Below are positions 31,956-45,927 of a stretch of 64,000 nucleotides of DNA, in pieces. The first letter of the stretch is position 1. Each line of letters begins with the position of its first letter. A model generated the notes under the pieces. The model was not told the origin of the DNA. It searched no databases and was given only the letters and a program-made list of their open reading frames with translations. Both the position numbers and the translations under genes were made by a program. Location of the stretch: assembly GCA_024400505.1 (NCBI GenBank), contig JAKSMP010000001.1, positions 5,265 to 69,264 of the forward strand, written 5' to 3'. The stretch is from Bacteroidales bacterium (GTDB lineage Bacteria > Bacteroidota > Bacteroidia > Bacteroidales > P3).

Positions 31956-32031
31956 TTTGAGTTGACTTTATCATTTTTATATAGCAGCTGGGCTCCATTA
32001 AGGAGTCCAGCTGCTTGCGTTTTAGGCTAAG

Positions 32032-32328
32032 TCAAACACCTGGAGATGGGGGACAATGCTTCTCATGCAGCTTGTCCACTATGGGGCATTGGAGTCGGTG
32101 CTTGCAGGTGTTGATGGCCTCGATGGCGGTGCGGAGACGCCGCACTTCTTCTTTTAACGGCTCGTAGATGTTGTGTTTGAATTCGTCGATGTATTGGACG
32201 GAGAGGTTCAGCTCCTCTCGGCGGGTCTCTGTTTGGCTTTTGCGAAGCTCTTGCTGGAACTTCTTCTGTCGCATCAGCCAGCCGTTGTCGGCAAGGGCCT
32301 GGATAATGGTTTTAAATGGTTCTTTCAT
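32032..32328 (-). CDS. Hypothetical small helical protein
   Basis: 98 aa, charged and coiled-coil-like. A heptamer array starts 19 nt upstream of its ATG. Confidence 0.45.
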   Translation of the reverse strand: MKEPFKTIIQALADNGWLMRQKKFQQELRKSQTETRREELNLSVQYIDEFKHNIYEPLKEEVRRLRTAIEAINTCKHRLQCPIVDKLHEKHCPPSPGV

Positions 32329-32346
32329 GTTTGATTTGTTCTTTTT

Positions 32347-32515
32347 TAGGTAGGAGGTGTGAATAGGTAGGAGGTGGGAATAGGTAGTAGGTAGTAGGTA
32401 GCAGGTGGGAGGTAGTAGGTAGCAGGTAGCAGGTAGTAGGTAGCAGGTAGGAGGTAGCAGGTGGGGCGGGGACCGGTGGGGGGCAGGTAGTAGGTGGGGG
32501 CGGGGGCCGGTGGGA
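32347..32515 (+). repeat. Heptamer tandem array (NAGGTAG)n plus GGGGCGGGGACCGGTGGGG motifs
   Basis: Read directly: ...TAGGTAGTAGGTAGTAGGTAGCAGGTGGGAGGTAGTAGGTAGCAGGTAG... Confidence 0.95.
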
Positions 32516-32580
32516 TGGGGTGCAGAGTGGATTGTACAGAGTTTAGGGTGGAGAGGGCTGGCGCAGGTGGGCTGGATGGG

Positions 32581-32698
32581 GAACCGCGAAAGACGCGAAA
32601 GGCACGAAATTTTTTCTTTAAGCTGCTAACGTGTTGGGCTTGCTGGAGCAAGCTAAGGACACGAAAATTTTTAGCGTTATTTAGCGTTTTTATCGGTT
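32581..32698 (+). repeat. CGAAA-hairpin core element, copy 1 (MITE-like)
   Basis: GAACCGCGAAAGACGCGAAAGGCACGAAA ... GCTTGCTGGAGCAAGC ... TTTAGCGTTATTTAGCGTTTTTATCGGTT. The arms are imperfect inverted repeats. Confidence 0.9.
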
Positions 32699-32758
32699 GT
32701 ATTTTTTTAGCGGTTGTGATTGGTGATTTGTGGTGAGAATTAGGTCTCCCCCTAAAAA

Positions 32759-32807
32759 CCTACTACCTGCTACCTACTACCTGATTTACCTACTACCTGA
32801 TCTACCT
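32759..32807 (-). repeat. Inverted short heptamer array (CTACCTN)n
   Basis: CCTACTACCTGCTACCTACTACCTGATTTACCTACTACCTGATCTACCT. Reverse complement of the array at 32347. Confidence 0.9.
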
Positions 32808-32820
32808 TGCTCTCGTTCAA

Positions 32821-33612
32821 TTACTCTTCTTCGTCGCTGCCATTCGTGGTTCCGCCGCCGCCACTATTGGCTGTGAAGATGGCGGTGAGGGCCATGTCGC
32901 TATTGACTACAATACTGCGTGAGGCTTGGGTGTTGCCATCGCTCCAACGGGTGAAGGTGAAGCCGCTGGCCGCCGTGGCTGCTATCGCCGCTGTGGCTCC
33001 ACTCTCGTATTGTCCGCCACCTGTCACTGTACCACCATTGGCTGGCGATGCGCTAAGGGTTAACGTCTTTCTTCCAGTAGGCGTGGGTGTCGGAGCCGGG
33101 TCGTCAGGATTTTCTTCCACCGGTCGTGACCCTGCTGCCCGCTTGGCCGCAGCCAATGTCTCGGCGGTGGATCCTTTGGTGAGTACTTCGTGGAATGTGG
33201 CATCTTTGCGCAGGTCGGCAAACTTGCTGCCTTTGCTCCACACTACGTTCACTTTCTTGATGTTGATGGAACTGAATTCGTCCATGTATTCAGCCCCCAT
33301 ACTCACCAACGAGAGACGGAAGCTGCCGAGGTCGCCCAACTCCACTGATTTGCCGGCTAGGAGCTGCTCTCGCAAGCAACTGACGGCTTTCTTGAGGATG
33401 GCTTGCACATCGGCTGCATCGTATGAACAGCCATGGTCGGCGATGTGGTTGGAGAAGGACTCGAGGTCCATGGTTTCAATGCTCTGGGCGTTGCCGTAGT
33501 AACGGAATATGGCACCAGGGAATGTTTCGACCTTCAGGTCGGGATTTGCTTTTTTGGCCACTTGGAACTCTGCGATGTTCGTGAGTCGTGGCGCTACACT
33601 GTAAAGAATCAT
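32821..33612 (-). CDS. Bacteroidales HU-related DNA-binding protein with C-terminal Listeria/Bacteroides repeat
   Basis: HU-like core LLAGKSVELGDLGSFRLSL, a Pro/Thr linker, then GGTVTGGGQYESGATAAIAATAASGFTFTRWSDG. Confidence 0.7.
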   Translation of the reverse strand: MILYSVAPRLTNIAEFQVAKKANPDLKVETFPGAIFRYYGNAQSIETMDLESFSNHIADHGCSYDAADVQAILKKAVSCLREQLLAGKSVELGDLGSFRLSLVSMGAEYMDEFSSINIKKVNVVWSKGSKFADLRKDATFHEVLTKGSTAETLAAAKRAAGSRPVEENPDDPAPTPTPTGRKTLTLSASPANGGTVTGGGQYESGATAAIAATAASGFTFTRWSDGNTQASRSIVVNSDMALTAIFTANSGGGGTTNGSDEEE

Positions 33613-33649
33613 GTTGTTTTAAAATTTTAAAAATTGTTATTGTTTTTTT

Positions 33650-33724
33650 AGGTAGGAGGTAGCAGGTAGGAGGTAGTAGGTAGCAGGTAGTAGGTAGTAG
33701 GAGGGCGGGAGCCGGTGGGGGAGG
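33650..33724 (+). repeat. Heptamer array plus GGGCGGGAGCCGGTGGG
   Basis: Read directly. Starts 38 nt upstream of the minus-strand HU-like start. Confidence 0.95.
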
Positions 33725-33838
33725 GAACCGCGAAAGACGCGAAAGGCACGAAAATTTTTCAGGTCGCTAACGTGTTGTGCTTGCTGGAGCAAGCTAAGGC
33801 GCGAAAATTTTTAGCGTTATTTAGCGTTTTTAGCGGTT
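33725..33838 (+). repeat. CGAAA-hairpin core element, copy 2
   Basis: Same consensus as copy 1. Confidence 0.9.
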
Positions 33839-33845
33839 GGGGAAA

Positions 33846-33970
33846 TAGGTAGTAGGTGTGAATAGGTAGTAGGTAGCAGGTAGAAGGTAGTAGGTGGGGG
33901 CGGGAGCCGGGATTTTTTTAGGTAGGAGGTAGTAGGTAGGAGGTAGTAGGTGGGCGGGAGCCGGTGGGGG
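33846..33970 (+). repeat. Heptamer array, two blocks each ending in GGGCGGGAGCCGG
   Basis: Read directly. Confidence 0.95.
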
Positions 33971-33975
33971 AAAGG

Positions 33976-34092
33976 GAACCGCGAAAGACGCGAAAGGCAC
34001 GAAATTTTTTTCAAGTTGCAAACGTGTTGGGCTTGCTGAAGCAAGCGAAGGTTACGAAATTTTTTTAACATTGTTTTGCGTTTTTAGCGGTT
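33976..34092 (+). repeat. CGAAA-hairpin core element, copy 3
   Basis: Same consensus with a degenerate right arm. Confidence 0.85.
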
Positions 34093-34099
34093 AGAAAAT

Positions 34100-34282
34100 T
34101 AGGTGGTAGGTGTGAATGGGTAGGAGGTAGCAGGTAGGAGGTAGTAGGTAGTAGGAGGGCGGGGGCAGGTAGTAGGTAGCAGGTAGAAGGTAGTAGGTGG
34201 GGGCGGGAGCCGGTGGGAGGGGGGCAGGTAGTAGGTAGCAGGTAGGAGGGAGTAGGGGGGGGCGGGGCCGGGAGTGGGGGGT
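34100..34282 (+). repeat. Heptamer array with three G-rich motifs
   Basis: Read directly. Confidence 0.95.
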
Positions 34283-34462
34283 GGTCTGTGTTGTGTCTTC
34301 ATTTGTTTACTTTTCATTTTAACTGCGTGTAGGATTAATTGGTACTTTTTTGTTTTGTTTTGCAAAGATACGACTTTTAACATTCGCTGGTCGTGCGTTA
34401 TGATGCGATTGGGTGCTGTGGTATGAGATAAAGTGAGATTACTTTGATCCTTCCTGCCTAAA

Positions 34463-34699
34463 TCAGGGGCTGCCGAGGTAGGAGACGATGAGGGCGACTT
34501 CTTTGGAGGTGTAGTATTTGCTGTATTTGTTGTACCCGATATCGTCCAGTGCTTTGCTAAGCGGGGCACAGCGTTTGATCCAGAGCGTGAGCCGGTTGAC
34601 TGCTGAGCGTGAGTCCGCCAGGGGAAAGTAGCAATGTGCAAGTGCTTGTTTGCTGTAGGTCCTGATAGGGAACGGTGGTGTGGTGAAGTTGTCTTCCAT
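34463..34699 (-). CDS. DUF4248 domain protein
   Basis: 78 aa from the ATG at 34699: YSKQALAHCYFP ... AVNRLTLWIKRC ... GYNKYSKYYTSKEVALIVSYLGSP. Confidence 0.7.
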   Translation of the reverse strand: MEDNFTTPPFPIRTYSKQALAHCYFPLADSRSAVNRLTLWIKRCAPLSKALDDIGYNKYSKYYTSKEVALIVSYLGSP

Positions 34700-34782
34700 G
34701 TGTATTTCTGTTTTTTGTTCATTATAGGTTAGGTGGACTGAGGGGTCAGGTCGTCTCGCCGTACTTGTTAGGTCGTATCGGT

Positions 34783-35829
34783 CTAGGCGTCCATGGTGTT
34801 TGAAGTTTTTGACTCTAGGAGTAGTTCTACCAAGTCGATCTTGCGCTCTTTCTGGTCGGGAGTGGATAGGCGTTCGAGTATGTCGGAGGTGTAGATGGCT
34901 AGTCCTGTCTTGCTGCTGATTTCTGCCGCATGCTTCCGCCAAAGGGCGTAGGCTTTCCCTTCGGGATCGGTGTCGGGGAAGAGTATGATTCGATAGCCGC
35001 TGCCTTGGAAGGGGGTGAAGAGTTCTGCATGGAGGTTGTTCATCCCGCCCGTGGCCATCCAGATGGCCCGGGGGATCAACAGCGAACAGATGACGGCCGT
35101 CTTCTCACTCTCTACTATGGCTATCGGCTGGCCGTCTTCGTGTCTCGCATGCTTTGAGATGAGGTGCAGGCCGAAGAGGCAGCGGGTGGCATGGTGGCTC
35201 TTGGGTAGTTGTCCGCGCCGTTTCAATACCGAAGTGATGGTGTAGGGGGCATGGCTCTGGCTCCGGTGACCATCGGGTCGATACTGCATCACCTTGCCTT
35301 CATGCACCTGTTGCTGCTCGTCCACCTGCCAGAAGATGACTCCCCCATCATGCGTGGCTCCAAGATGGTATCTGGCTACCGCCTCTTCCATCTGGTCGGC
35401 GGTGAGGATGCCCGATTGTACCATGGACCAGCAGAACGTGTTTCTGCCCGACTGACACCGCGACAGGTACAAGGCCGGGAGGTAGTCGTTTGTTGGCTGC
35501 GCTTTCGGCAGCGATGGGGTGGTGCGTGGCTTCGGCATGGGTTTGATCTGTTTTGTCAGGCTTATGTCTTCTTCGATATTGAATTGCTCGGAGAGCCATC
35601 GGCAGGCTTCGATGAAACCGAGGTTTTCTTTGGCCATCACGAGGTTGATGGTGCTGCCTCCTTTGCCACAAGAAAAGCAGTACCAGAGGTTCTCGCTGAC
35701 GTTGAAGGTGAGGCTTGGGTGTTTGTATTCGTGAAGAAAACAATTGCATTTGTGGTGTCGGACTTCTATTCCGAGTGCATTCGCCACTTCTTCGATGGGG
35801 ATGGTGCGTATTTTGTCTAGATTGAACAT
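34783..35829 (-). CDS. CHC2 zinc-finger / Toprim DNA primase-like protein
   Basis: From the ATG at 35829. CHC2 finger: CFLHEYKHPSLTFNVSENLWYCFSCGKGG. Toprim: VESEKTA and LFPDTDPEG. The longer ORF-track version runs into repeat sequence. Confidence 0.75.
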   Translation of the reverse strand: MFNLDKIRTIPIEEVANALGIEVRHHKCNCFLHEYKHPSLTFNVSENLWYCFSCGKGGSTINLVMAKENLGFIEACRWLSEQFNIEEDISLTKQIKPMPKPRTTPSLPKAQPTNDYLPALYLSRCQSGRNTFCWSMVQSGILTADQMEEAVARYHLGATHDGGVIFWQVDEQQQVHEGKVMQYRPDGHRSQSHAPYTITSVLKRRGQLPKSHHATRCLFGLHLISKHARHEDGQPIAIVESEKTAVICSLLIPRAIWMATGGMNNLHAELFTPFQGSGYRIILFPDTDPEGKAYALWRKHAAEISSKTGLAIYTSDILERLSTPDQKERKIDLVELLLESKTSNTMDA

Positions 35830-35844
35830 GGGGTAAGGGGGTGT

Positions 35845-35972
35845 TAGGTAGTAGGTGTGAATAGGTAGTAGGTAGTAGGTGGGGCGGGAGCCGGTGGGAG
35901 GAGGGTGGAGGTAGTAGGTAGTAGGTAGTAGGTAGCAGGTAGTAGGTGGGGCGGGAGCCGGTGGGAGGGAGG
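35845..35972 (+). repeat. Heptamer array plus G-rich motifs
   Basis: Starts 16 nt upstream of the minus-strand primase ATG. Confidence 0.95.
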
Positions 35973-36089
35973 GAACCGCGAAAGACGCGAAAGGCACGAA
36001 ATTTTTTCTTTAAGCTGCTAACGTGTTGGGCTTGCTGAAGCAAGCGAAGGCACGAAAATTTTTAGCGTTATTTAGCGTTTTTAGCGGTT
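35973..36089 (+). repeat. CGAAA-hairpin core element, copy 4
   Basis: Same consensus. Confidence 0.9.
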
Positions 36090-36096
36090 GAAAAAT

Positions 36097-36193
36097 TAGG
36101 TGGTGGGTAGCAGGTAGCAGGTGGGGCGGGAGCCGGTGGGAGGAGGGTGGAGGTAGTAGGTAGCAGGTGGGGCGGGAGCCGGTGGGAGGGAGG
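36097..36193 (+). repeat. Heptamer array plus G-rich motifs
   Basis: Read directly. Confidence 0.95.
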
Positions 36194-36299
36194 GAACCGC
36201 GAAAGACGCGAAAGGCACGAAATTTTTTCTTTAAGCTGCTAACGTGTTGGGCTTGCTGAAGCAAGCAAATGTTACGGAAATTTTTAGAGTTTTTGCGGT
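36194..36299 (+). repeat. CGAAA-hairpin core element, copy 5
   Basis: Same consensus with a degenerate right arm. Confidence 0.85.
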
Positions 36300-36378
36300 A
36301 TGGATTGGTGGTTTGTGATGTGGGGTTCGGGGATGTGATTGGTGTTTGTGATGAGAGTTAGGTTTTCCCAATAAAATA

Positions 36379-36404
36379 CCTACTACCTGCTACCTACTAC
36401 CTGA
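36379..36404 (-). repeat. Inverted heptamer block
   Basis: CCTACTACCTGCTACCTACTACCTGA, preceded by GTGATTGGTGTTTGTGATGAGAGTTAGGTTTTCCCAATAAAATA. Confidence 0.9.
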
Positions 36405-36460
36405 TTCTTTTGCGGTTGTGATTGGTGTTTGTGGTGAGAGTTAGGTTTTCCCAATAAAAT

Positions 36461-36496
36461 ACCTGCTACCTACTACCTGATATACCTACTCCCTGA
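36461..36496 (-). repeat. Inverted heptamer block, second copy of the about 95-bp right-end module
   Basis: ACCTGCTACCTACTACCTGATATACCTACTCCCTGA, preceded by the same GTGATTGGTGTTTGTGGTGAGAGTTAGG module. Confidence 0.9.
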
Positions 36497-36568
36497 TTCA
36501 TTGCCTGAGTCCTTCTACTTTTTCGCTCGGCTTTCCCTACTTCCCCCGGTATCCCCTAGAGGGGATAC

Positions 36569-37714
36569 CTAGGGGGCAGGCTGGCCGCCTGCTTCGGAGG
36601 CGGGGTCCCTTAGCCTGGGTCCCCGCTTGTAGTACACGCAGTCTTCGCTCTTGACAATTTTCTCGATAATGAGGTCTTGTAGGGCCTTGTAGCGGACTCT
36701 GCCATACCAGTTGAGGTTCTCGATATTTGTGAGTTCTTGGAATTTCTGCTCCAGTTCGTATGCTCGTAGTTGGGTGGTGTCGTCTGGTAGCAGGGTGGAG
36801 AACACTTTCACGGCATTCACTTCTCCTCCAATCATATATTCTCTGTTGATGGGTAGGTGGGCGGTAGCCTTCTTTTTGGAGAGTGCTGATGGTGGAATAT
36901 TGGTTAGTTCGGGCAGACCTTGATCGTTGACGGTGAAACGGAGGGTGTCGAGGATGTCGTATTTGCGGGTCATCACCTGTTTCCAAGAAAAGATACGGTC
37001 GGCGTCTTTCTCGCACTCATATACCTCGAACGACTTGTAGGTCAGCTCTGTGCCAATCCATCCGCGGAGGTTTTTGTCTTCCGAAGCTTTGTTTTGGTGC
37101 AGCACACACACGATGCAGCATCCCTGTTCTGAAGCAAGGTGCATGAGCCGTTCGATGACCTCTTGCGACAGCACGCCGTCGTTGATGTCGTTCACCAGGT
37201 CTCGTATGCCGTCCAAGATTACCAAGTCGGGTTTGTCGTGCCGGATGGCTACCTCTAGCAGCGGCATACGATCCTGCCAGAATTCTGCTCGCACGTTGTA
37301 CACATCGCATCGTTCCGCAAGGAATGAGTCTATGGCACTGCTATCTTGGCACATGCGTAGTACTCGGTCGCGTAGGATTTCTTGTGTGGACTCCTCACTC
37401 TGCTCGGTGTCGAACCACAGCAGGTGAAGCGGGTCGGCCTCGATACGCCGGACTGAGAGCGACTCTTCGCAAAGGCAGAGGCTCATGAGGATGGAGGTGA
37501 GAAATGTCTTGCCCGACTTGGCTCGGCCAGTCACCGCCACCAGTTCGCCTCGTGGGAAACAGGGTTTGTCGAACAGGCGGAAGAGGAACCGCCGTTGTGG
37601 GATCACGGTGGTGGGGGTGATGCGTCGTCGTTCAAGCCGCCTGATCCGTTCTTGGATCTCGGGATCGGTCCCTGCGAGGGCTATCTCGTCTTGAATTAGT
37701 TGTTGCAGGTCCAT
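36569..37714 (-). CDS. AAA_25/RepA-DnaB-like ATPase (putative replicative helicase or loader)
   Basis: Walker A VTGRAKSGKTF, Walker B DLVILDGIRDL, and VCVLHQNK. Confidence 0.7.
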   Translation of the reverse strand: MDLQQLIQDEIALAGTDPEIQERIRRLERRRITPTTVIPQRRFLFRLFDKPCFPRGELVAVTGRAKSGKTFLTSILMSLCLCEESLSVRRIEADPLHLLWFDTEQSEESTQEILRDRVLRMCQDSSAIDSFLAERCDVYNVRAEFWQDRMPLLEVAIRHDKPDLVILDGIRDLVNDINDGVLSQEVIERLMHLASEQGCCIVCVLHQNKASEDKNLRGWIGTELTYKSFEVYECEKDADRIFSWKQVMTRKYDILDTLRFTVNDQGLPELTNIPPSALSKKKATAHLPINREYMIGGEVNAVKVFSTLLPDDTTQLRAYELEQKFQELTNIENLNWYGRVRYKALQDLIIEKIVKSEDCVYYKRGPRLRDPASEAGGQPAP

Positions 37715-37822
37715 TGATATACTTTTTTCTTCAAAAATTGTTTATTTTGCAAAAGTACATACGCTGCCTGACATAAGAGGCCATATATGACCCTGCTAGG
37801 CATCGAGGAAAAATGATAAACT

Positions 37823-38337
37823 ATGAAGAAAGAATCTTGTATTCAACTTCCCTCGTTCGGGATTGCGCTGCAAAAGGTATGCGACTCGTTGGGCATCCAT
37901 GCAGCAATGGTGAAGGACTATGGCTTGTCGCTATCTACCTTCAAGAGAATGAAAAAAGGGCACCTGTCCGTACCGATCACCTGGCTTTGATGTTGCGCAT
38001 CATCCGTGATAGTTGCTTGGAAACGGAGTTTCCGTTGATTGCCATGGAACTGGTGGCGGGGCTGGTGGGGACGGATGCGAGTTTTGGCGAGAAAAATACA
38101 ATCCTAGCCTCGGCAGGTGGGGCAGGATTGGTGTCTAAAGGGGATTATGCTGAGCAAAAATTCCCTCATTGTGCCCGCTCTACGGCGCTCAAGAAGCTGG
38201 CAAATACTATTCGGTCGAATCCGCGGTTGGCATCGGCGCTGCGTGACGCAGGCTACAGCCCAAACTCCCATACGCTCACGCTGAGGCAGGTGAGGGTAAT
38301 TGAGGAGGGTTGGAGGGAGGTGGCAGGTAGTAGGTAG
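37823..38337 (+). pseudogene. HTH/DUF4248-like gene, apparently frameshifted in a poly-A run
   Basis: The ATG at 37823 gives MKKESCIQLPSFGIALQKVCDSLGIHAAMVKDYGLSLSTFKRMKKGHLSVPITWL*. The remainder (...RDAGYSPNSHTLTLRQVRVIEE) continues in the frame of ORF 37813..38337. The switch is plausible at the A-run near 37951. Confidence 0.4.
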
Positions 38338-38855
38338 TAGGTAGCAGGTAGTAGGTAGTAGGTGGGAGGTAGTAGGTAGCAGGTAGGAGGTGGGGCGGGA
38401 GCCGGTGGGATGGGGGCCGGTTGTTAGGTAGCAGGTAGGAGGTGGGAGGTAGCAGGTGGGAGGTAGCAGGTAGCAGGTAGTAGGTAGTAGGTGGGCGGGA
38501 GCCGGTGGGAGGTGGTAGGTGGGAGGTGGTAGGTAGTAGGTGGGGCGGGGGCCGGGATTTTTTTAGGTAGGAGGTAGCAGGTAGTAGGTAGTAGGTGGGC
38601 GGGGGCCGGTGGGGGAGGTAGCAGGTTGTTAGGTAGCAGGTAGGAGGTAGCAGGTAGTAGGTGGGCGGGAGCCGGTGGGGGGCGGGTTGTTAGGTAGCAG
38701 GTAGGAGGTAGCAGGTAGTAGGTGGGGCGGGAGCCGGTGGGAGGGGCGGGAGCCGGTGGGGGGGGGGGGGGGGGGGGTGGGGGGGGGGGGGGTGGGGGGT
38801 AGCGGGTGGGGGGGGGGGGGGGGGCCGGGGGGGGGGGCGGGAGCCGGTGGGATGG
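38323..38855 (+). repeat. Longest heptamer array (about 530 bp) with many GGGCGGGAGCCGGTGGG motifs and an internal poly-G block
   Basis: Read directly. Its first TAG (38335-38337) is the stop of the upstream ORF. Confidence 0.95.
38758..38837 (+). repeat. Poly-G block: G20, G14, G6, G17 and G11 runs
   Basis: Counted directly from lines 38701-38821. Confidence 0.9.
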
Positions 38856-38928
38856 GGTGCAGAGTGGATTGTACAGAGTTTAGGGTGGAGAGGGTTGGGC
38901 ACAGGTGGGTTGGATGGGGAACCGCGAA

Positions 38929-39032
38929 AGACACGAAAGACACGAAATTTTTCAAGTCGCTAACGTGTTGTGCTTGCTGGAGCAAGCGAAGGCGCGAAAT
39001 TTATATAGCGTCATTTGGCGTTTTTAGCGGTT
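38929..39032 (+). repeat. CGAAA-hairpin core element, copy 6
   Basis: Same consensus. Confidence 0.9.
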
Positions 39033-39039
39033 AGAAAAT

Positions 39040-39256
39040 TAGGTGGTAGGTGTGAATAGGTAGTAGGTGTGAATAGGTAGTAGGTAGTAGGTAGTAGGTA
39101 GTAGGTAGTAGGTGGGCGGGAGCCGGTGGAGGAGGGTGGAGGTAGGAGGTAGCAGGTAGCAGGTAGTAGGTGGGCGGGAGCCGGTAGCAGGTAGGAGGTA
39201 GCAGGTAGGAGGTAGCAGGTAGCAGGTAGTAGGTGGGGCGGGAGCCGGTGGGGGGA
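39040..39256 (+). repeat. Heptamer array plus G-rich motifs
   Basis: Read directly. Confidence 0.95.
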
Positions 39257-39361
39257 TTTGCTAGCGAAAGAGTATCAGGTTTTAGGAGGCTTTTGAGGGG
39301 ATTGTGTTGTTGTGTCAAGGTTGGGATGGTGACACATCGCTTATATTTCGAAAAAAAAACG

Positions 39362-39369
39362 TATATTTG
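39362..39369 (+). promoter_or_regulatory. Candidate -7 box TAtaTTTG
   Basis: Matches Bacteroides TAnnTTTG. It lies 59 nt upstream of the ATG at 39428 in an AT-rich leader. Confidence 0.35.
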
Positions 39370-39427
39370 CAATTTACTTTATTTAGTATAAATATTATAA
39401 TAAAATATTAATCAAATATTTGCAGTT

Positions 39428-40705
39428 ATGGCAGAACGTAATATGATTTATCTGTGTCTGGCTCACATGAGCGAGAACACGATGGAAGAGAAGTATGTAC
39501 AAGAAGCTTTTGACACCAATTGGGTAGTGCCTATGGGTCCTAATGTTAATGCTTTTGAGCAGGATCTAGCTACTTTTGTGAATGGCAATGCCGATGGTTC
39601 TAATCTCGACCGCAAGGTAGTATGTCTTTCCGCTGGTACCGCAGCCATCCACCTGGCTTTGATCGCTTGTGGCGTAAAGGCTGGCGATGAGGTGTGTGTT
39701 CAATCTTTCACGTTCTGTGCATCATCACACCCCATCACCTATCTCGGTGCCAAACCTGTGTTTATCGGTTCGGAGAAGGATACTTGGAACATGGATCCAG
39801 AGTTGCTCGAAAAGGCTATCCTCGACCGTAAGGCTAAAACTGGCCATTATCCCAAGGCCATCATTCCAGTGGCTCTCTATGGTATGCCTTACCAGATTGA
39901 CAAAATTATGGCCATCGCCAACAAATATGGTATTCCCGTAATTGAAGATGCTGCCGAAGGCATGGGCTCTCGCTTTGATGGCAGAGTGCTTGGCTCCTAC
40001 GGCAAATATGGTATCCTCTCTTTCAATGGCAATAAGATGATCACCACCTCTGGCGGTGGTGCTATGATTTGTCAGAGCCCCGAAGAGGCCAACGAGATTA
40101 TGTGGTATGCTACACAGGCTCGCGACGCTTATCCTTACTATGAACATACCGCTATCGGATATAACTATCGTATGAGCAATGTGTGCGCCGGCATCGGTCG
40201 CGGCCAGATGACGGTATTGGACGAACATATCGCCCATCACAAGCATGTACAAGCTCTTTATGAAGATTTGTTGAAGGATGTTCCTGGTATCCACATGCAC
40301 TGCCAGCCAGCAGATCCTCGTTATGATGCCAATTTCTGGCTCTGCGCAGCCACCATTGACCCTGACGTGCATGTCCAAGGCCAAGAGAATGCGTATAAAG
40401 AGGTAATCAAGACAGCCGTGGGCGGTGCCGCCGGCGTCATCCATGCCGTGGATTCTGCCACTACCGACTGCCAGCCCAACGAGAACGTGGAGGCACTTCG
40501 TGTGTTTATGCTGGACAAGAAAGTAGAGTGTCGTCCCCTTTGGAAACCCATGCACAAACAGCCTGTTTATGCCTCTGCAGATGTATATACCAACAACATA
40601 GAGGAGGACCTCTTCAAAATCGGTTTCTGCCTTCCCGCAGGTCCCATGGTCACCGATGACGACGTGAAGTACATCGTTGAATGCATAAAAGAAGCAATCA
40701 GTTAA
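39428..40705 (+). CDS. DegT/DnrJ/EryC1/StrS-family PLP aminotransferase
   Basis: FEQDLATFV, VCVQSFTFCASSHPI, IEDAAEGMGS and SFNGNKMITTSGGG (Lys) motifs. Confidence 0.85.
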   Translation: MAERNMIYLCLAHMSENTMEEKYVQEAFDTNWVVPMGPNVNAFEQDLATFVNGNADGSNLDRKVVCLSAGTAAIHLALIACGVKAGDEVCVQSFTFCASSHPITYLGAKPVFIGSEKDTWNMDPELLEKAILDRKAKTGHYPKAIIPVALYGMPYQIDKIMAIANKYGIPVIEDAAEGMGSRFDGRVLGSYGKYGILSFNGNKMITTSGGGAMICQSPEEANEIMWYATQARDAYPYYEHTAIGYNYRMSNVCAGIGRGQMTVLDEHIAHHKHVQALYEDLLKDVPGIHMHCQPADPRYDANFWLCAATIDPDVHVQGQENAYKEVIKTAVGGAAGVIHAVDSATTDCQPNENVEALRVFMLDKKVECRPLWKPMHKQPVYASADVYTNNIEEDLFKIGFCLPAGPMVTDDDVKYIVECIKEAIS

Positions 40706-40733
40706 TAGTTGCAATTGGCTTATGAATAATATT

Positions 40734-40883
40734 GAACCGCAAAAAACGCAAAAGACACGAAATTTTTCAAGTCGCTAACGTGGAGGCTTGCTAGAGCAAG
40801 CAAAATCACGAAAGAATGTAGGTCACAGAATCCTACTCTTTGGAACAAAGAGAATTTTGCGTTTTTTAGCGTTTTTCGCGGTT
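40734..40883 (+). repeat. CGAAA-hairpin core element, copy 7 (long variant with CTCTTTGGAACAAAGAG insert)
   Basis: Same arms plus an internal palindrome. Confidence 0.85.
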
Positions 40884-40972
40884 AAAAACAAAAAACAGGT
40901 TGCTATGATTGTTCCACAGAGAAATAGCACCGTTGTGAGATGATTATTTAAGTGTTTACGGTATCAAGAGCT

Positions 40973-41365
40973 ATGAGCAATGGAATTCTTTATCCCAAAG
41001 AATCGTATGAAATAGTAGCTGCAATTATAGAAGTTCACAAGCAATTGGGCTGTGGTTTTTTGGAAATGGTATATCAAGATGCGCTAGAGGTTGAGTTCAA
41101 TCTGAGAAATATTCCATTTGAACGTGAAAAGAAACTGGCAGTGCAATATAAGGGAAATGTGTTAAAATCTTATTATGTGGCAGATTTTATATGTTTTGGC
41201 CATATCATTGTTGAATTAAAGGCGGTGGATGAAATATCAAATATTCATGTTGCTCAGGTTCTAAATTATCTAAAGGTTACAGGTTTTAAACTTGGATTGC
41301 TTGTGAATTTTAATGAAGTTTTTGTCCAACCGAGAAGGATCGTATTGTCTCAAAGTTCAAGATAG
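40973..41365 (+). CDS. GxxExxY protein (PD-(D/E)XK-like)
   Basis: ESYEIVAAIIEVHKQLGCGFLEMVYQDAL ... YVADFICFGHIIVELKAV ... LNYLKVTGFKLGLLVNF. Confidence 0.8.
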   Translation: MSNGILYPKESYEIVAAIIEVHKQLGCGFLEMVYQDALEVEFNLRNIPFEREKKLAVQYKGNVLKSYYVADFICFGHIIVELKAVDEISNIHVAQVLNYLKVTGFKLGLLVNFNEVFVQPRRIVLSQSSR

Positions 41366-41473
41366 ATTTATATCTAGAGGCTAGTACTTTGATTCTTGAT
41401 TTTGGCACCTGATTAACTGAATTCGAAAATGGTATGTTGATTTTATTGAATTCCAAAACAAGAAATTTATAAA

Positions 41474-42787
41474 ATGAATGAAAAACACCTATTAGAACGA
41501 AAGAACGGATTGACATTCATCCTCATCACCAGCCTTTTTGCGCTGTGGGGATTTGCCAATGATATCACGAATCCGATGGTGGCTGCGTTCCAGACACTGA
41601 TGGAACTGAGCACTGCAAAGGCGTCACTGATCCAGTTCGCCTTCTATGGCGGTTATGCCACCATGGCGATTCCAGCCGCTTTGTTTATCCGCCGATTCTC
41701 CTATAAGAAGGGAATTCTGTTGGGTTTGGCTTTATATGCCATAGGGGCATTCCTCTTTATCCCTGCAGCAGCACAGCAGAGCTTTATGTTTTTCTGCTTC
41801 TCATTGTACATCCTGACGTTCGGCTTGGCATTTCTTGAAACCACAGCTAGTCCGTATATCATGTCATTGGGTGATAAGGAGAATGCCACCCGCAGATTGA
41901 ACTTGTCACAGGCGTTCAATCCGATGGGGTCGCTCTTGGGTATGGCTACGGCTTCGATGATTGTGCTACCCAACCTGCTCTCCGACCGCCGCGACGAGAT
42001 GGGCAATATCTTATTTTCCACCCTAGGTGAGCCTGAAAAGGCAAGCATCCGGCTGCATGACCTGGCCGTGATACGCAACCCTTACGTGGCTCTTGGTGTG
42101 GTGGTACTCGTCATGTTAATCGTAATTGCACTTTTGGTGAAAAACGAAAAGACACAGATTGGTCAGCAGCCAGCAATCAACAGCGTGTCTGCTACATTGA
42201 AACGCTTGTGGAGGAATAAGTTATATCGCGAAGGGGTGGTGGCTCAGGTGTTCTATGTGGCTGCTCAGATTATGGTGTGGACTTTTATCATCCAGTATGC
42301 CGACAACTTGGGCATCGACAAGGCCACGGCTCAGAACTATAATATTTTGGCCATGGTGCTGTTCTTGTGCGGACGCTTTGTATCTACTTTCTTGATGAGA
42401 TGGGTGAATGGCCGCAAACTCTTGGTGACCTTCGGCGTTGGAGCTGCCCTTTGTGCGCTGGGTGCCATACTCATCGTGGGTATGCCGGGACTGTATTGTT
42501 TGATAGGCATCAGTTTGTTTATGAGTTTGATGTTCCCCACCATCTATGGCACAGCTTTGGAGGATGTGTCGTTAGAAGATGCAACTCTGGGGGCCGCATT
42601 CTTGGTGATGGCGATTGTGGGCGGTGCGTTGATGCCTCCGTTGCAAGGCATGATTATTGACTGTGGCACCATCCTAGGCCATCCCGCTGTGAACGTGAGC
42701 TACTGCTTACCGTTCCTCTGCTTCGTTGTGGTGACATGGTATGGGGTAAAAGGTGTTAAGCAGTTAGAGCATAGATCAAAATTATAA
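41474..42787 (+). CDS. fucP: L-fucose:H+ symporter family MFS permease
   Basis: 12 TM. WGFANDITNPMV ... SLIQFAFYGGY ... FLETTASPYI ... RLNLSQAFNPMGS aligns with my recollection of E. coli FucP. Confidence 0.8.
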   Translation: MNEKHLLERKNGLTFILITSLFALWGFANDITNPMVAAFQTLMELSTAKASLIQFAFYGGYATMAIPAALFIRRFSYKKGILLGLALYAIGAFLFIPAAAQQSFMFFCFSLYILTFGLAFLETTASPYIMSLGDKENATRRLNLSQAFNPMGSLLGMATASMIVLPNLLSDRRDEMGNILFSTLGEPEKASIRLHDLAVIRNPYVALGVVVLVMLIVIALLVKNEKTQIGQQPAINSVSATLKRLWRNKLYREGVVAQVFYVAAQIMVWTFIIQYADNLGIDKATAQNYNILAMVLFLCGRFVSTFLMRWVNGRKLLVTFGVGAALCALGAILIVGMPGLYCLIGISLFMSLMFPTIYGTALEDVSLEDATLGAAFLVMAIVGGALMPPLQGMIIDCGTILGHPAVNVSYCLPFLCFVVVTWYGVKGVKQLEHRSKL

Positions 42788-42844
42788 AAATTTTTATTTT
42801 ATTATAATAATTATATGTAATGAGCGTTATTTAATTAATTTTTC

Positions 42845-44833
42845 ATGACAAATTCATGGGAAATGAAGGTTATGATAAGAATATTGCGCAAAATATCAAA
42901 CTGGTACTTTTCTAAAGGTGCTCTGCCTTATTGGATTATCTTGGTTATCGACCTCGTGATTGTGATGGCTTCGGCTTATGTGGGAGCTTATTTCGTTTGG
43001 GGCGGCGGCGGCGTGACCAATCGTTTTTGGTCGCTGTTCAGAGGTATGTTTGTGGCAGAGGTTTTCTATTTGCTGATTTTCCGTTACCTGCATACTTATA
43101 CGGGCGTTATCCGTTTTTCTACTTTGAAGGATATTGCCGTGGTGTTGCTATCCAATCTCTTGGGCGCTGCCGTCACTTACTTGTTGGGTCGTATCTTCCA
43201 TGCTTTGGGGTGGCATTATGTGCAGCTTCTTTCATTGAAAGGCTGTGTGGCTTTGTTCTTCTTCTGTTCCATCGCCATGTCCTGTTTGCGTGTGGTAGTG
43301 AAGCTGGTTTATGATGGCTATATTCGCGACGATAAGGCTCGCCGTGTGTTCATTTATGGTGTGAAAGATGGCGGAGCCGCCATTGCTAGCAGCCTAATGA
43401 ATGAACATCCCCAGCGTTTTTGTGTGTCGGGATTTGTGAGTCCCGATGGCTCTTATGAAAGCAAATGGTTGATGGGTGTTCAGGTGCGTCGTGTGGGTCC
43501 CAATCTGGTGAAGCACATGCGTGATGAACATGCCAATATCTTGGTCGTGTCGCCCAATCGTGAGGATGAATTCCGCGCCAATGCCGAACTGGTGGATACG
43601 ATGATCCAGTCAGGAATCAAGATTATGATGTTCACCGGCGTGTCGGATTGGGATGAAAACTCCCAGCTGAACAACCCAGTTTTGCGTGAGGTGGATATTG
43701 AAGAGTTGTTGCCTCGTGAGAAAATTGAGGTGGATTTGGATACCATCGGACAGATGCTCAAGAATAAGTGCATCATGATTACGGGTGCGGCTGGCTCTAT
43801 CGGATCTGAGATTGTGCGTCAGGTGGCTACTTTTGGACCTTCAAAACTCGTTTTGGTGGATCAGGCCGAGACACCTATGCACGACATTCTGCTGATGATG
43901 AATAATCAATTCAGCTATCTGAATAGTGTGGTAATGGTTACCAGCATCACCAACAAGACTCACATGGAACAGCTTTTCCGCCAGCATCGTCCAGAATATG
44001 TGTTCCATGCTGCTGCCTACAAGCATGTGCCAATGATGGAGGATAACCCCGCTGTGGCTGTGCAAAATAATGTGTATGGCACCCGTGTGGTTGCCGACTT
44101 GGCTGTGAAGTATGGCGCAAAGAAGTTTGTGATGGTGTCCACCGATAAAGCTGTGAATCCTACCAACGTGATGGGCTGTTCCAAGCGTATCTGCGAGATC
44201 TATTGTCAGTCTCTCAACAAAGCTATCGTGGAAGGACAATGCCCCATTGAGTTGGCAGAAGGTTTGGATAAGCCTTGTACGCAGTTTGTGACCACCCGTT
44301 TTGGCAATGTATTGGGTAGCAACGGTTCTGTGATTCCCATCTTTAAAGAACAGATTAAGAAGGGCGGTCCTGTCACGGTGACTCATCCCGATATCATTCG
44401 TTTCTTTATGCTCATTCCCGAAGCTTGCCGACTGGTGTTGGAAGCTGGCACAATGGGCATGGGGGGCGAGATTTTTGTCTTTGACATGGGCGAGCCTGTC
44501 AGAATTGCCGACCTGGCCAAGCGCATGATCAAGCTCTCTGGTGCACAGAATATTGAGATTAAGTTCACCGGCCTCCGCCATGGTGAGAAACTCTACGAGG
44601 AGGTGCTTAACGAGAAGGAGCAGACCAAAGAGACCCACCATCCGAAGATCAGAATCGCCAACGTGCGCGAATACGAATATGCTGAAGCTCTCCGCAACGA
44701 GGAACGCCTGCTGGCTGAATCTTTTACTCATGACGATATGGCTATCGTGAAGATAATGAAGGAAATCGTGCCGGAGTATAAGAGCCAGTCCTCGAAGTAT
44801 GAGGTGCTGGACGGGAAGACGGAGGACAGGTAG
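42845..44833 (+). CDS. CapD/WbpM/PglF-like membrane-anchored nucleotide-sugar 4,6-dehydratase
   Basis: N-terminal TM helices, then ITGAAGSIGSE, YKHVPMME, STDKAVNPTNVMGCSKR. The stop TAG lies inside a heptamer array. Confidence 0.85.
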   Translation: MTNSWEMKVMIRILRKISNWYFSKGALPYWIILVIDLVIVMASAYVGAYFVWGGGGVTNRFWSLFRGMFVAEVFYLLIFRYLHTYTGVIRFSTLKDIAVVLLSNLLGAAVTYLLGRIFHALGWHYVQLLSLKGCVALFFFCSIAMSCLRVVVKLVYDGYIRDDKARRVFIYGVKDGGAAIASSLMNEHPQRFCVSGFVSPDGSYESKWLMGVQVRRVGPNLVKHMRDEHANILVVSPNREDEFRANAELVDTMIQSGIKIMMFTGVSDWDENSQLNNPVLREVDIEELLPREKIEVDLDTIGQMLKNKCIMITGAAGSIGSEIVRQVATFGPSKLVLVDQAETPMHDILLMMNNQFSYLNSVVMVTSITNKTHMEQLFRQHRPEYVFHAAAYKHVPMMEDNPAVAVQNNVYGTRVVADLAVKYGAKKFVMVSTDKAVNPTNVMGCSKRICEIYCQSLNKAIVEGQCPIELAEGLDKPCTQFVTTRFGNVLGSNGSVIPIFKEQIKKGGPVTVTHPDIIRFFMLIPEACRLVLEAGTMGMGGEIFVFDMGEPVRIADLAKRMIKLSGAQNIEIKFTGLRHGEKLYEEVLNEKEQTKETHHPKIRIANVREYEYAEALRNEERLLAESFTHDDMAIVKIMKEIVPEYKSQSSKYEVLDGKTEDR

Positions 44834-45015
44834 CAGTTTTTTTAGGTAGCAGGTTTTTAGGTAGCAGGTAGCAGGTAGTAGGTAGCAGGTTATTAGGTAG
44901 TAGGTGGTAGGTTTTTAGGTATGGGTAGTAGGTTATTAGGTAGTGGGTTATTAGGTAGTAGGTAGCAGGTAGTAGGTAGTAGGTAGTAGGTTTTTAGGTA
45001 GTAGGTGGTAGGAGT
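44828..45015 (+). repeat. Degenerate heptamer array (TTTTTAGGTAG / TTATTAGGTAG variants)
   Basis: Read directly. Confidence 0.9.
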
Positions 45016-45075
45016 GGGATTATTATTGGATGAATGATATTGGTGCTGACTCTGTCAGCGGTATTCTTGTCTGTC

Positions 45076-45229
45076 AACCGCGAAATACGCGAAAGGCACG
45101 AAATTTTTTCTGGATGATAACGTGAAGGCTTGCTGGAGCAAGTAAAGAACACGAAAAATTGAAGCTGACTTTGGCTGACTCTTTGGAACAAAGAGTTATT
45201 TTTAGCGTTATTTAGCGTTTTTCGCGGTT
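45076..45229 (+). repeat. CGAAA-hairpin core element, copy 8 (long variant)
   Basis: Same consensus with the GACTCTTTGGAACAAAGAGT insert. Confidence 0.9.
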
Positions 45230-45441
45230 AAGATATAGTAATGGTAACGTATAAAAATTGTTTCTCTAGCCGAGCAAGCTCGGCCAGAAGGACTGAAAGA
45301 AATTATCAGAAATGTTCCAGAAATTATTAATAATTAGTGATTTCTGATAATAATGATTCTCGAAAGGTTCAGTTTGACAGTTTCGCTTGCACTACTGAAA
45401 TTATCCAATTAATAGTGGTTGTCTAATGCAGTAGGCAGGTG

Positions 45442-45595
45442 GAACCGCGAAATACGCGAAAGGCGCAAAATTTTTCAGGACGCTAACATGAGGGCTTGCT
45501 GGAGCAAGCAAAGAACACGAAAAATTGCAGCTGACTTTGGCTGACTCTTTGGAACAAAGAGTTCTTTTTAGCGTTATTTAGCTTTTTTCGCGGTT
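45442..45595 (+). repeat. CGAAA-hairpin core element, copy 9
   Basis: Near-identical to copy 8. Confidence 0.9.
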
Positions 45596-45808
45596 AAGAT
45601 ATAATAATAGCAACGTATAAAAATTGTTTTCTAGCCGAGCAAGCTCGGCCAGAAGGACTGAAAGAAATTATCATAAATGTTCCAGAAATTATTAATAATT
45701 AGTTATTTCGGATAATAATGACTTTCTCGAAAGGTTCAGTTTGTCAGTTTCTCTTGCGATACTGACATTATCCAATTAATAGTGGTTGTCTAATGCAGTA
45801 GGCAGGTG

Positions 45809-45927
45809 GAACCGCGAAAGACGCGAAAGGCGCAAAATTTTTTCAGGACGCTAACATGAGGGCTTGCTGGGGCTAGAAAAAATGCGAAAACGAACTTGGT
45901 ATGGTCGTTTTCGCGTTTTTTTGCGTT
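45809..45927 (+). repeat. CGAAA-hairpin core element, copy 10 (right half degenerate)
   Basis: The left arm is identical; the right arm diverges after GCTTGCTGG. Confidence 0.75.

Follow-up and report, generated by a model that had tools for sequence, protein, structure and literature searches.

The (NAGGTAG)n arrays of the window (the whole 64,000-nt stretch of DNA analysed here) are, by analogy with published systems, lineage-specific G-rich heptanucleotide simple-sequence repeats (SSRs), of the class of the cyanobacterial STRR/GGGGA(C/T)T and Xanthomonas GGGAATC repeats. They would thus be a new example of known G-rich heptamer repeats, here in an uncultured gut-type Bacteroidales. It appears rather probable that they are generated by slippage and tolerated only in non-divergent intergenic spacers, with a possible effect on expression; a dedicated function would not be required to explain them.

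TRF detects tandem arrays of period 7, 14 or 21 at ten sites of the window (Table 1). A sequence-only reading of this DNA had announced ten long arrays with the G-rich strand always on +; TRF and word counts confirm this for all ten, and add three short arrays of opposite orientation that had been missed. The estimate of about 2 kb of arrays holds for the window (~1.9 kb summed) but not for the flagged interval 32347-39256, which contains only ~1.5 kb of that. Eight of the ten long arrays are concentrated in 7 kb, a crowding that slippage alone leaves unexplained. The window has 133 AGGTAG words on the + strand and 17 on the - strand, where ~23 per strand would be expected, and the dimer AGGTAGNAGGTAG is present 91 times (86 on the + strand) versus 0.00 expected from 100 dinucleotide shuffles. 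The first base of the heptamer is T in 64 cases, C in 41, G in 25 and A in 3; slippage alone does not account for the near-absence of AAGGTAG units.

Table 1. Repeats and associated features of the window (last column, coordinates of the TRF call)
Feature	Position	Strand	Description	TRF
Array 1	32347-32514	+	G-rich heptamers, two variant caps; 18 nt 5' of minus-strand start 32328	32347-32514
Non-heptamer segment	32515-32582	+	Common to 38852-38920	
TIR module M	32583-32700	+	AACCGCGAAAGACGCGAAAGGCACGAAA ... GCTTGCTGGAGCAAGC ... TTTTTAGCGTTATTTAGCG...GGTT	
Module M, further copies	33727-33839, 33978-34093, 35975-36090, 36196-36290, 38921-39033, 40735-40886, 45076-45230, 45443-45596, 45810-45935			
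Short reverse array after HU gene	32758-32807	-	G-rich on -; begins 13 nt past HU stop (32821)	
Array 2 plus cap	33649-33719	+	37 nt 5' of HU start 33612	33649-33701
Array 3	33845-33968	+	Two blocks, each closed by a cap; flanked by two TIR modules	33863-33951
Array 4	34099-34281	+	Three blocks; strongly different among six samples	34119-34271
Bacteroidetes -7 promoter motif TATCTTTG	34363-34370	-	Conserved in other samples and one relative	
Array 5	35846-35965	+	Two capped blocks; 17 nt 5' of primase start 35829	35862-35947
Array 6	36098-36186	+	Two short capped blocks; 46-nt higher-order repeat	36106-36194
Two short reverse arrays	36377-36403, 36460-36497	-	Within 83-nt tandem unit; downstream of AAA_25 stop (36569)	
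Array 7, longest	38318-38851	+	~9 blocks; own TAG is the DUF4248 stop (38337)	38318-38851
Array 8	39040-39252	+	Three capped blocks; upstream of DegT promoter at 39362	39040-39234
Array 9	44828-45015	+	T-rich spacers, no cap; first TAG is the stop of a CapD-like gene	44828-45012
Array 10	59361-59550	+	Fills GT4/HAD convergent spacer; first TAG is the GT4 stop; one cap	59362-59547

The array block consists of a short spacer, (NAGGTAG)2-8 and a cap, a constant polarity that slippage alone leaves unexplained. Punctuation by a 17-mer, as proposed earlier, is borne out: GGGCGGGAGCCGGTGGG is present in 14 exact copies and its looser form in 21, all on the + strand, with 0 copies of either on the - strand of the window. 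What had escaped attention is that the cap, TAGGTGG-GCGGGAG-CCGGTGG, amounts to three heptamer units in degenerate form; in array 10 it lies in heptamer register and 16 of its 21 positions match TAGGTAG-GAGGTAG-CAGGTAG. Canonical G4 motifs (13 on +, 1 on -) are found only in the 17-mer caps and their G-rich tails. The G4 potential that had been suggested therefore applies to these caps and tails and not to the heptamers, whose units contain only GG.

Within the window the arrays are strictly intergenic, and they are missing from both of its divergent spacers as well as from 12 of the 12 spacers in its low-GC half. In 8 of 8 cases the array set adjoins the ORF lying to the 5' side of its G-rich strand, the arrays being anchored either on the stop codon (sense) or 17-37 nt upstream of the start (antisense). 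The distances to three minus-strand starts (32328 to 32347, 33612 to 33649 and 35829 to 35846) and the contact with the 3' ends of three + genes had been correctly described; TAGs of the arrays themselves are the stops of these three genes, at 38337, 44833 and 59367. The GT4 protein is untruncated, its alignment to homologues reaching within 3-15 residues of both ends. The + strand of the arrays has stops in every frame, as had been stated, but the - strand, held to be stop-free, is open save for the spacer motifs.

Arrays of AGGTAGN are found across many phyla. Among 72 such arrays in other phyla, 53 lie closer to the 5' than to the 3' ORF (p = 8e-5), and 32 of the 36 arrays lying <=50 nt from the 5' ORF follow a co-oriented ORF. 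The 5'-ORF anchoring observed here matches the rule published for the G-rich heptamers of Xanthomonas and Nostoc (PMC4692102). Throughout the window + is also the G-rich (leading) strand, so that for the + bias of the arrays a replication-linked cause is inseparable here from ORF anchoring.

Seven short-read assemblies made independently from other samples, and a sister NCBI assembly, show the same array junctions; thus the arrays are not an assembly artefact. Array flanks are >97% identical between samples while the arrays themselves diverge in steps of 7 nt and 28 nt or by entire blocks, in agreement with the hypervariability suspected from the sequence. Array 10 is 28 nt (four units) shorter in sample SRR28795469, the reverse array behind HU lacks one unit in a comparison of strains, and array 4 differs in block content in six samples, with just six variable sites in ~200 flanking columns. 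Synteny breaks within array 2 in sample SRR28795469, and short-read contigs terminate within arrays or modules.

In relatives with 42-45% identical primases the gene order of the AAA_25-primase-DUF4248-HU cluster is kept, with spacers of 151-154 nt and 275 nt; these homologous clusters contain no heptamer arrays. The spacers of this genome measure 740-850 nt versus about 150-275 nt in these distant relatives, an enlargement that the arrays and a separate TIR-module family would have produced. Because the same cluster is compact and array-free in relatives, the arrays are, on this sequence comparison, a lineage-specific inflation of the spacers and not iterons of the module. The HU promoter is ~750 nt from the start codon here versus 165 nt in a relative, with arrays 2-4 plus two modules between promoter and gene. 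Since this Bacteroidetes-type promoter, GTCGTATCTTTGCA, conserved in the relative, lies upstream of the arrays preceding HU, these should be transcribed, in C-rich sense. The earlier idea of leaders of minus-strand genes stands in this part.

Replication slippage together with unequal or ectopic recombination would add and remove units and blocks, since strains differ by 7-nt and block-sized steps, and selection would restrict the arrays to non-divergent intergenic spacers. With a TAG in each 7-nt unit, a duplication beginning at a stop codon would leave the protein as it is, and arrays would thus be anchored on stops (sense) or just outside starts (antisense). The stop-codon argument does not cover antisense arrays upstream of start codons. 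As they inflate the cluster spacers, the arrays probably end up in C-rich RNA, as leaders or between cistrons. This would likely lead to long RNA helices wherever arrays of reverse orientation pair, to caps prone to form G4 on the lagging-strand template, to breakpoints for recombination, and to a leader length which, changing from strain to strain, could tune expression.

The arrays could also be cis-regulatory contingency tracts on the model of the 7-bp repeats that precede the hmw adhesin genes of H. influenzae, their lengths in the 5' leaders of the HU, primase and 98-aa genes and in the 3' UTRs of + genes tuning or switching expression through G4 caps or RNA helices. We regard this as rather unlikely. 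The HU start codon is indeed separated from a conserved promoter by arrays, array length varies between strains, a single strand holds 13 G4 motifs, and the surroundings are capsule/LPS loci, which are classic targets of phase variation. Inverted arrays are predicted to form strongly stable RNA helices (z = -8.2 and -10.7), the reverse array 32758-32807 pairing with array 1 and those at 36377-36497 with arrays 5 and 6 in minus-strand RNA, but such predicted stability is automatic for any inverted repeat. Arrays are also present in the convergent spacer 59361-59550 and at 3' ends, positions at which they affect neither a promoter nor a start codon; at 70-530 nt they far exceed the few-unit windows typical of switches, and the Xanthomonas and Nostoc analogues showed no link to surface or adaptive genes (PMC4692102). 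According to PMC12721329 and PMC8262952, hmw1A/hmw2A have a phase-variable upstream heptanucleotide SSR, which resembles the present arrays in its 7-bp tandem repeats in the promoter/5'-UTR, differing in number between isolates; there, individual loci have been shown to affect transcription of the adhesin genes, whereas the arrays here are numerous and also found at 3' ends.

Interleaved with the arrays is a second repeat family, undescribed by the reading that had seen the heptamers, namely 10 copies of a 118-155 nt module with terminal inverted repeats (TIRs). BIME/REP and BOX elements are mosaic intergenic repeats of this kind, in which a hairpin or TIR module accompanies variable tandem sub-repeats, and likewise break assemblies. 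That arrays and TIR module M spread jointly, as one composite mobile element of the MITE/BIME/BOX-like mosaic type, seems improbable, even though the TIRs are clear and a 254-nt composite tandem at 33662-34217 alternates arrays with modules. At 5-6 junctions the array start motif comes right after the right TIR and the cap right before the left TIR, and a cap-U1-M segment is common to spacers 32475-32700 and 38812-39033; the paralogous stretches 32475-32561 and 38812-38898 are 89% identical, which shows an exchange of larger blocks between spacers. However, the arrays lie outside the TIRs, an array without module is found at 59361-59550 and modules without arrays at 40735, 45443 and 45810, no target-site duplication is visible, no transposase is present, and 151 other loci with AGGTAGN arrays showed no module beside them. 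The P. gingivalis BrickBuilt MITE (PMC4596501), to which this arrangement may be likened, also comes from a Bacteroidales host and consists of modular dispersed intergenic repeats, a hairpin/TIR module with variable tandem sub-repeats, that break short-read assemblies; its minisatellite (22-23 nt units) is inside the TIRs, whereas here the 7-nt arrays are outside, and arrays and module each also occur alone.

It is very unlikely that the arrays are protein-binding iterons, as the sequence-only reading had envisaged for a primase/helicase/HU module, or replication/recombination sites for the adjacent AAA_25/primase/DUF4248/HU-HIG proteins, or that the caps are Chi-like polar signals. Eight of the ten arrays surround this module, their polarity is that of the G-rich leading strand, and the cap includes GCCGGTGG, the E. 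coli Chi with one base changed. But besides the array-free modules of relatives, arrays are found at the unrelated CapD and GT4/HAD genes, in many phyla AGGTAGN arrays exist without these module genes, GCCGGTGG is confined to the arrays within the window, which a genome-wide Chi word would not be, and orientation is unrelated to local GC skew in 100 other loci (53 to 47).

The reading of the arrays as a whole as an assembly or sequencing artefact, or as cryptic coding sequence on the stop-free minus strand, is hardly credible and largely refuted: the 84-nt G-run closing array 7 (38758-38841), of uncertain accuracy, resembles a consensus problem and may be a consensus error, and minus-strand ORFs of 70-200 codons span the arrays, one with an ATG start 46 nt after a promoter, but the junctions recur in the independent assemblies, the ORFs lack consistent starts, each unit gained or lost would shift the frame, and a search of 5.8 billion proteins with the array-encoded peptide gives only six matches, all weak and of low complexity, the one locus checked being eukaryotic-looking.

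As heptanucleotide SSRs, the arrays join a phenomenon already described (PMC4692102, PMC4679880), although the earlier statement that no function is described was fair. Heptamers are the commonest class of bacterial long SSR, as PMC4679880 cites from Mrazek 2007. Rehm et al. 2015 (PMC4692102) described G-rich heptameric SSRs in Xanthomonas (GGGAATC) and Nostoc/Anabaena (GGGGA(C/T)T, STRR-type), with which the present arrays share the 7-nt unit with one G-rich strand, the many intergenic arrays, rarely between divergent ORFs, the conserved positions with variable length and sequence in close relatives, and inverted pairs in some cases; no function is assigned to either. In contrast to these, NAGGTAG has only GG and G4 motifs come only from the block-closing cap, the arrays reach ~530 nt whereas 4 units are preferred there, members of the TIR-module family alternate with them, and the host is an uncultured Bacteroidales bacterium. 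MacGregor 2015 (PMC4679880) described TAACTGA heptamer repeats, unrelated in sequence to NAGGTAG, in marine Beggiatoaceae, cyanobacteria and some Bacteroidetes. Unlike the present arrays, the Beggiatoaceae sets have 2-6 copies, mostly forward and just upstream of starts (PMC4679880). Both are intergenic heptamers containing stop codons with a sporadic phylogenetic distribution; there too draft contigs stop within the repeats, the spacers of relatives are shorter and repeat-free, and some Bacteroidetes have long mixed-heptamer spacers (PMC4679880).

All ten array sites claimed by the sequence-only reading were recovered by Tandem Repeats Finder (TRF), at periods of 7, 14 and 21, and are visible in the sequence itself. 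Array DNA sums to ~1.9 kb and is spread over 27 kb within the window, which is 64 kb out of one 87.9-kb MAG contig. The AGGTAG hexamer core occurs 133 times on the + strand and 17 times on the − strand, for ~23 per strand expected from base composition. The two-unit word AGGTAGNAGGTAG has 91 copies, 86 of them on +; the mean over 100 dinucleotide-preserving shuffles is 0.00. The unit variants are TAGGTAG (64), CAGGTAG (41) and GAGGTAG (25), AAGGTAG being almost missing (3). The arrays are made of head-to-tail 7-nt units and their length is far above chance, as in heptanucleotide repeats of the LSSR/STRR type. The earlier reading placed the G-rich strand on + in every long array, which is correct; three short arrays, then overlooked, lie in reverse orientation (see table).

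Arrays are built from blocks. Each block opens with a short spacer, which is a T-run, GGTTGT or GGAGGAGGGTG, continues with 2–8 heptamers and ends in a G-rich cap. The 17-mer GGGCGGGAGCCGGTGGG is present in the window in 14 exact and 21 relaxed copies, on the + strand in every case. In array 10 the cap is in the heptamer register (TAGGTGG-GCGGGAG-CCGGTGG) and matches TAGGTAG-GAGGTAG-CAGGTAG at 16 of 21 positions, the five mismatches all being changes to G or C. What had been taken for “punctuation” is thus three heptamers in degenerate form, propagated within higher-order repeats of 46–59 nt. The G-quadruplex potential noticed earlier belongs to the caps and their G-rich tails and not to the heptamers themselves: among the canonical G4 motifs (13 on +, 1 on −), the 13 on + are all in caps or G-rich tails and none is in heptamers. 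The NAGGTAG units differ in this respect from the quadruplex heptamers of Rehm et al., where each unit brings a G3-4 tract and four units give a G4; here each unit has GG only.

Features of the window discussed in the text (positions in nt)
Feature	Position	Strand	Description
Array 4	34099-34281	G-rich on +
Array 10	59361-59550	G-rich on +	no module
Short reverse-orientation array	32758-32807	G-rich on −	TRF + word counts
Short reverse-orientation array	36377-36403	G-rich on −	TRF + word counts
Short reverse-orientation array	36460-36497	G-rich on −	TRF + word counts
Cap consensus			(T/C/G)AGGTGGG(G)CGGGAGCCGGTGGG, block 3' end
Cap plus tail			GGGGCGGGAGCCGGTGGGAGGGAGGG
G-run	38758-38841		84 nt, ~81% G, within longest array
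Modules	32583-45935		ten copies, e.g. 35975-36090, 40735-40886, 45076-45230
Modules without array	40735, 45443, 45810
Composite tandem of arrays and modules	33662-34217		254 nt
Long tandem repeat	45054-45935		366-367 nt, ~2.4 copies
PDDEXK_3/GxxExxY gene	40952-41365
ORF with partial DUF4248 match	37813-38337		174 aa
ATG ORF (MKSKQMKTQHRPPP...)	34236-34308	−	reads into array 4
Conserved HU promoter	34370		GTCGTATCTTTGCA
SLATT_4 and SMODS genes	22500-23906		adjacent
E. coli Chi octamer GCTGGTGG	1636, 10134, 38061, 48965, 50144, 54769, 61563, 61693	+
E. coli Chi octamer GCTGGTGG	51292	−

The arrays are real. An assembly artefact is ruled out by seven independent Logan assemblies (short-read assemblies of other samples) and a sister NCBI assembly, which share the genes and whose contigs run into the same arrays and end there. 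The only suspect stretch of array sequence is the 84-nt G-run, possibly a consensus error from long reads. The hypervariability proposed earlier is borne out by 7-nt and block-sized differences among samples: copy number differs at conserved positions, by indels of 7 and 28 nt and by whole blocks, between flanks 97–99.8% identical. For instance, the DUF4248 downstream flank (~200 nt) has six variable columns in six samples, and from the first array base on, after the DUF4248 gene, these samples diverge in block content and length. In sample SRR28795469 array 10 is shorter by four units (28 nt) and the reverse array following the HU gene by one unit. In the same sample (its locus 1-1303 compared with window 33613-34462) the HU gene is 98.5% identical and is preceded by only a five-unit array, beyond which lies unrelated DNA with a divergent ADP-ribosylglycohydrolase gene 129 nt upstream of HU. 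Synteny therefore breaks inside the array, either at a rearrangement breakpoint or in a chimeric short-read contig.

The position of the arrays relative to genes follows a rule. Followed along its G-rich strand, each of the eight array sets has an ORF adjoining it on the 5' side, at distances of 0, 0, 0, 13, 17, 18 and 37 nt, plus 71 nt, slightly beyond the 50-bp bin. Three sets begin, in sense, on a stop codon; as claimed earlier they stand at the 3' ends of three + genes, whose stop codons they supply. Two reverse sets lie, also in sense, 13 and 71 nt after the stops of minus-strand genes, and the last three are antisense, 17–37 nt upstream of minus-strand starts, the individual distances (18, 37 and 17 nt) agreeing with the earlier reading. 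The opposite array ends are 170–950 nt from the next ORF, with the exception of a 182-nt convergent spacer that is fully filled. All arrays are intergenic, in aligned or convergent spacers, and none is in the two divergent spacers present in the window. The same rule was described for the GGGAATC repeats of Xanthomonas and the GGGGA(C/T)T repeats of Nostoc, for which the 5' neighbouring ORF is the closest; these repeats are under-represented between divergent ORFs, are transcribed, vary in length among relatives and have no known function (PMC4692102). The first TAG of array 10 serves as stop codon of the GT4 gene. In alignments of the GT4 protein with homologues, only a few residues are left over at either C-terminus; array 10 therefore starts at the native gene end and the protein is not truncated.

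The rule was also tested on other genomes. A genome-collection scan for four AGGTAGN units gave arrays from many phyla, at least 151 loci. Among the matches listed, 72 arrays are flanked by two ORFs, and in 53 of these the 5' ORF is the nearer (binomial p = 8e-5); 32 of the 36 arrays within 50 nt of that ORF follow a co-oriented ORF.

The most economical reading takes the arrays for heptanucleotide simple-sequence repeats. Among long SSRs of bacteria, heptamers are the most frequent class according to the summary of Mrazek 2007 in PMC4679880. Slippage, together with unequal or ectopic recombination, would create and reshape the arrays, since they display 7-nt and block-sized polymorphism, higher-order periods and segments common to several spacers. 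Because TAG recurs every 7 nt, a duplication starting at a stop codon would be invisible to the protein, thus giving a simple selective reason for stop-codon anchoring. In the window the GC skew is positive on the + strand for all genes, whichever their orientation. Judged by the GC skew usual in bacteria, the G-rich array strand is then leading-strand sequence, hence lagging-strand template, and this would favour slippage; within this window the lagging-strand effect and ORF anchoring are inseparable. A replication-strand explanation is rejected for other genomes, where the orientation of AGGTAGN arrays does not follow local GC skew (53 to 47, 100 loci among the matches listed). In predicted minus-strand RNA the short reverse arrays pair with long arrays, enclosing modules of a second repeat family, with minimum free energies of −125.5 and −200 kcal/mol (z = −8.2 and −10.7). 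Any inverted repeat gives a strong predicted helix. Side effects of the arrays through such helices, or through the G4-prone caps, are plausible.

The arrays are thus real, striking and hypervariable, and belong to an already described heptamer-repeat class. What is new is the NAGGTAG unit, the architecture of blocks and caps, the occurrence in a Bacteroidales host and alongside a TIR module family, and the extension of the published positional rule to AGGTAGN arrays across phyla. The G-rich heptamer class, hitherto studied in Xanthomonas and cyanobacteria, reaches gut-type Bacteroidales, and the rule bears on how and why bacterial heptamer repeats arise, a long-standing small puzzle. Arrays and modules are sites of short-read assembly breaks, strain differences and synteny breaks, which makes them relevant to the quality of MAGs and to the typing of strains.

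On one side of the flagged interval is a low-GC capsule-type locus (1-32 kb), on the other are more polysaccharide genes. It carries on the minus strand genes for an AAA_25 ATPase, a Zn-ribbon/DUF6371 primase, DUF4248 and HU-HIG, plus a DUF4248 gene on +. Outside its own species the primase has homologues of at most 48% identity, and three fetched loci with primase homologues 42–45% identical were compared. In two of them (L226 and L227) AAA_25 is followed after 151–154 nt by the primase, then in L227 by an overlapping DUF4248, a 275-nt spacer, an HU-sized gene and an amidase; in L229 the order is primase, ORF, HU-HIG and amidase, the fetched stretch being without AAA_25. No heptamer array is present in these three loci, just a few 8-11-mer repeats. 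The corresponding spacers measure 739 and 850 nt in the window. Between DUF4248 and HU the relative shares the Bacteroidetes-type promoter GTCGTATCTTTGCA, on the minus strand in the window; it is ~165 nt from the HU start codon in the relative versus ~750 nt in the window, where arrays 2–4 and two modules separate them. The short array-free spacers of the relatives and the greater distance of a conserved promoter suggest that arrays and modules are lineage-specific insertions or expansions inside transcribed spacers. Here they lengthen spacers several-fold within a conserved cluster beside capsule loci, and are possibly relevant to variation near surface-polysaccharide genes.

It is possible that leader-located arrays have a contingency or regulatory role. 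This role, like the structured leaders of minus-strand genes proposed earlier, agrees with the leader location that the promoter implies for HU. It does not fit arrays that lie at 3' ends or fill the convergent spacer. A minus-strand ATG ORF starts 46 nt past the HU promoter and extends into array 4, so that any gain or loss of a unit would alter its length and frame; although unlikely to be a gene, it could be a variable upstream ORF.

The earlier inventory of repeats was right as to the arrays but incomplete, a second repeat family being interleaved with them. These modules (118–155 nt) have terminal inverted repeats (TIRs) of 28–30 nt, each made of three 9–10 nt sub-repeats of (CGCGAAAnA) type (AACCGCGAAAGACGCGAAAGGCACGAAA ... 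TTTTTAGCGTTATTTAGCGTTTTTAGCGGTT), around a central GCTTGCTGGAGCAAGC hairpin. Long variants carry an extra terminator-like hairpin, CTCTTTGGAACAAAGAG, then a T-run. One copy is immediately upstream of the PDDEXK_3/GxxExxY gene, and the long tandem repeat in the convergent spacer after a CapD-like gene associates, in each copy, a module with ~200 nt of AT-rich sequence containing a GCCGAGCAAGCTCGGC hairpin. The modules gave no match by plasmid BLAST or in Rfam; their TIR word has only partial look-alikes in viral contigs, and neither module nor 17-mer is in any of the 151 AGGTAGN loci listed from the genome-collection scan. The array-module junctions suggested a composite mobile element. But the TIRs bound just the module, the arrays being outside, there is no target-site duplication at eight junction pairs, and arrays and modules each occur independently. 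A MITE or mosaic intergenic element does not fit either, as no TIRs and duplications enclose a whole unit with its tandem repeats.

Constant block polarity (spacer, heptamers, G4-prone cap) co-occurs in the window with a 5'-ORF anchoring that the G-rich heptamers of Xanthomonas and Nostoc, though unrelated, also show; AGGTAGN arrays from dozens of unrelated lineages, among the matches listed, mostly start where a co-oriented gene has its stop codon. We consider it unlikely that together these features betray an undescribed general process or function. This could be a polar mechanism, transcription- or translation-coupled or polymerase-specific, that would start and extend stop-containing heptamers at ORF boundaries, or a selected “all-frame stop / 3'-UTR” element that would insulate neighbouring genes. 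If true, either would explain the arrays in place of neutral slippage.

Iterons for the primase/HU module, proposed earlier, are contradicted by homologous clusters that are array-free and by arrays at unrelated genes. Replication-origin iterons do not fit either: the units are of 7 nt and not 17–22 bp, the loci are multiple and unlinked, and AAA_25-primase homologues exist without arrays. Coding on the stop-free strand is unsupported, the encoded peptide having only six weak low-complexity protein matches, one at a eukaryotic-looking locus. A known RNA family was discarded, Rfam giving nothing at gathering thresholds in the window and nothing at E ≤ 1 in 32000-46200. A scan for sigma-70 promoters and intrinsic terminators gave 17 terminator-like sites for 14.6 expected, not an enrichment, and none inside arrays. 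At least 50 single metagenome matches to the heptamer/cap junction, on contigs of ~66% GC without arrays, are due to chance, as are the single 17-mer matches in viral contigs. No papers were found on the exact repeat sequences or accession numbers. A Chi-like role of the cap is contradicted by GCCGGTGG, which is not found outside arrays in the window. The E. coli Chi octamer itself has 9 copies in the window for 1.94 ± 1.28 expected, 8 of them on the G-rich (+) strand and every one outside arrays. This Bacteroidales lineage may use a strand-skewed Chi-like word, or the excess may simply come from GC skew.

The ORF at 37813-38337 matches DUF4248 in residues 108–166 only and its last residues are array-encoded. 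Its first 100 residues match no family, which may point to an internal true start or to a decaying gene. In the low-GC half (35–42% GC, 1-32 kb), a polysaccharide locus, arrays or modules are in 0 of 12 spacers; the SLATT_4 and SMODS genes there form a CBASS-like defence pair. In other Bacteroidales and one viral contig, spacers of tandem 7-8-mers start directly after stop codons: (TAGGTAG)n with (GAAGACA/G)n and (AAAGTTGA)n, in L036 (Bacteroidales MAG CSSed10_131; 100-470 and 2560-2743), L227 (3630-3740) and one more locus, L029 (4410-4730). Some spacers of this group hold inverted array pairs, (AGGTTATA)n...(CCTCAAAA)n or (TAGGTAG)14...(CTACCTA)n, giving long hairpins.
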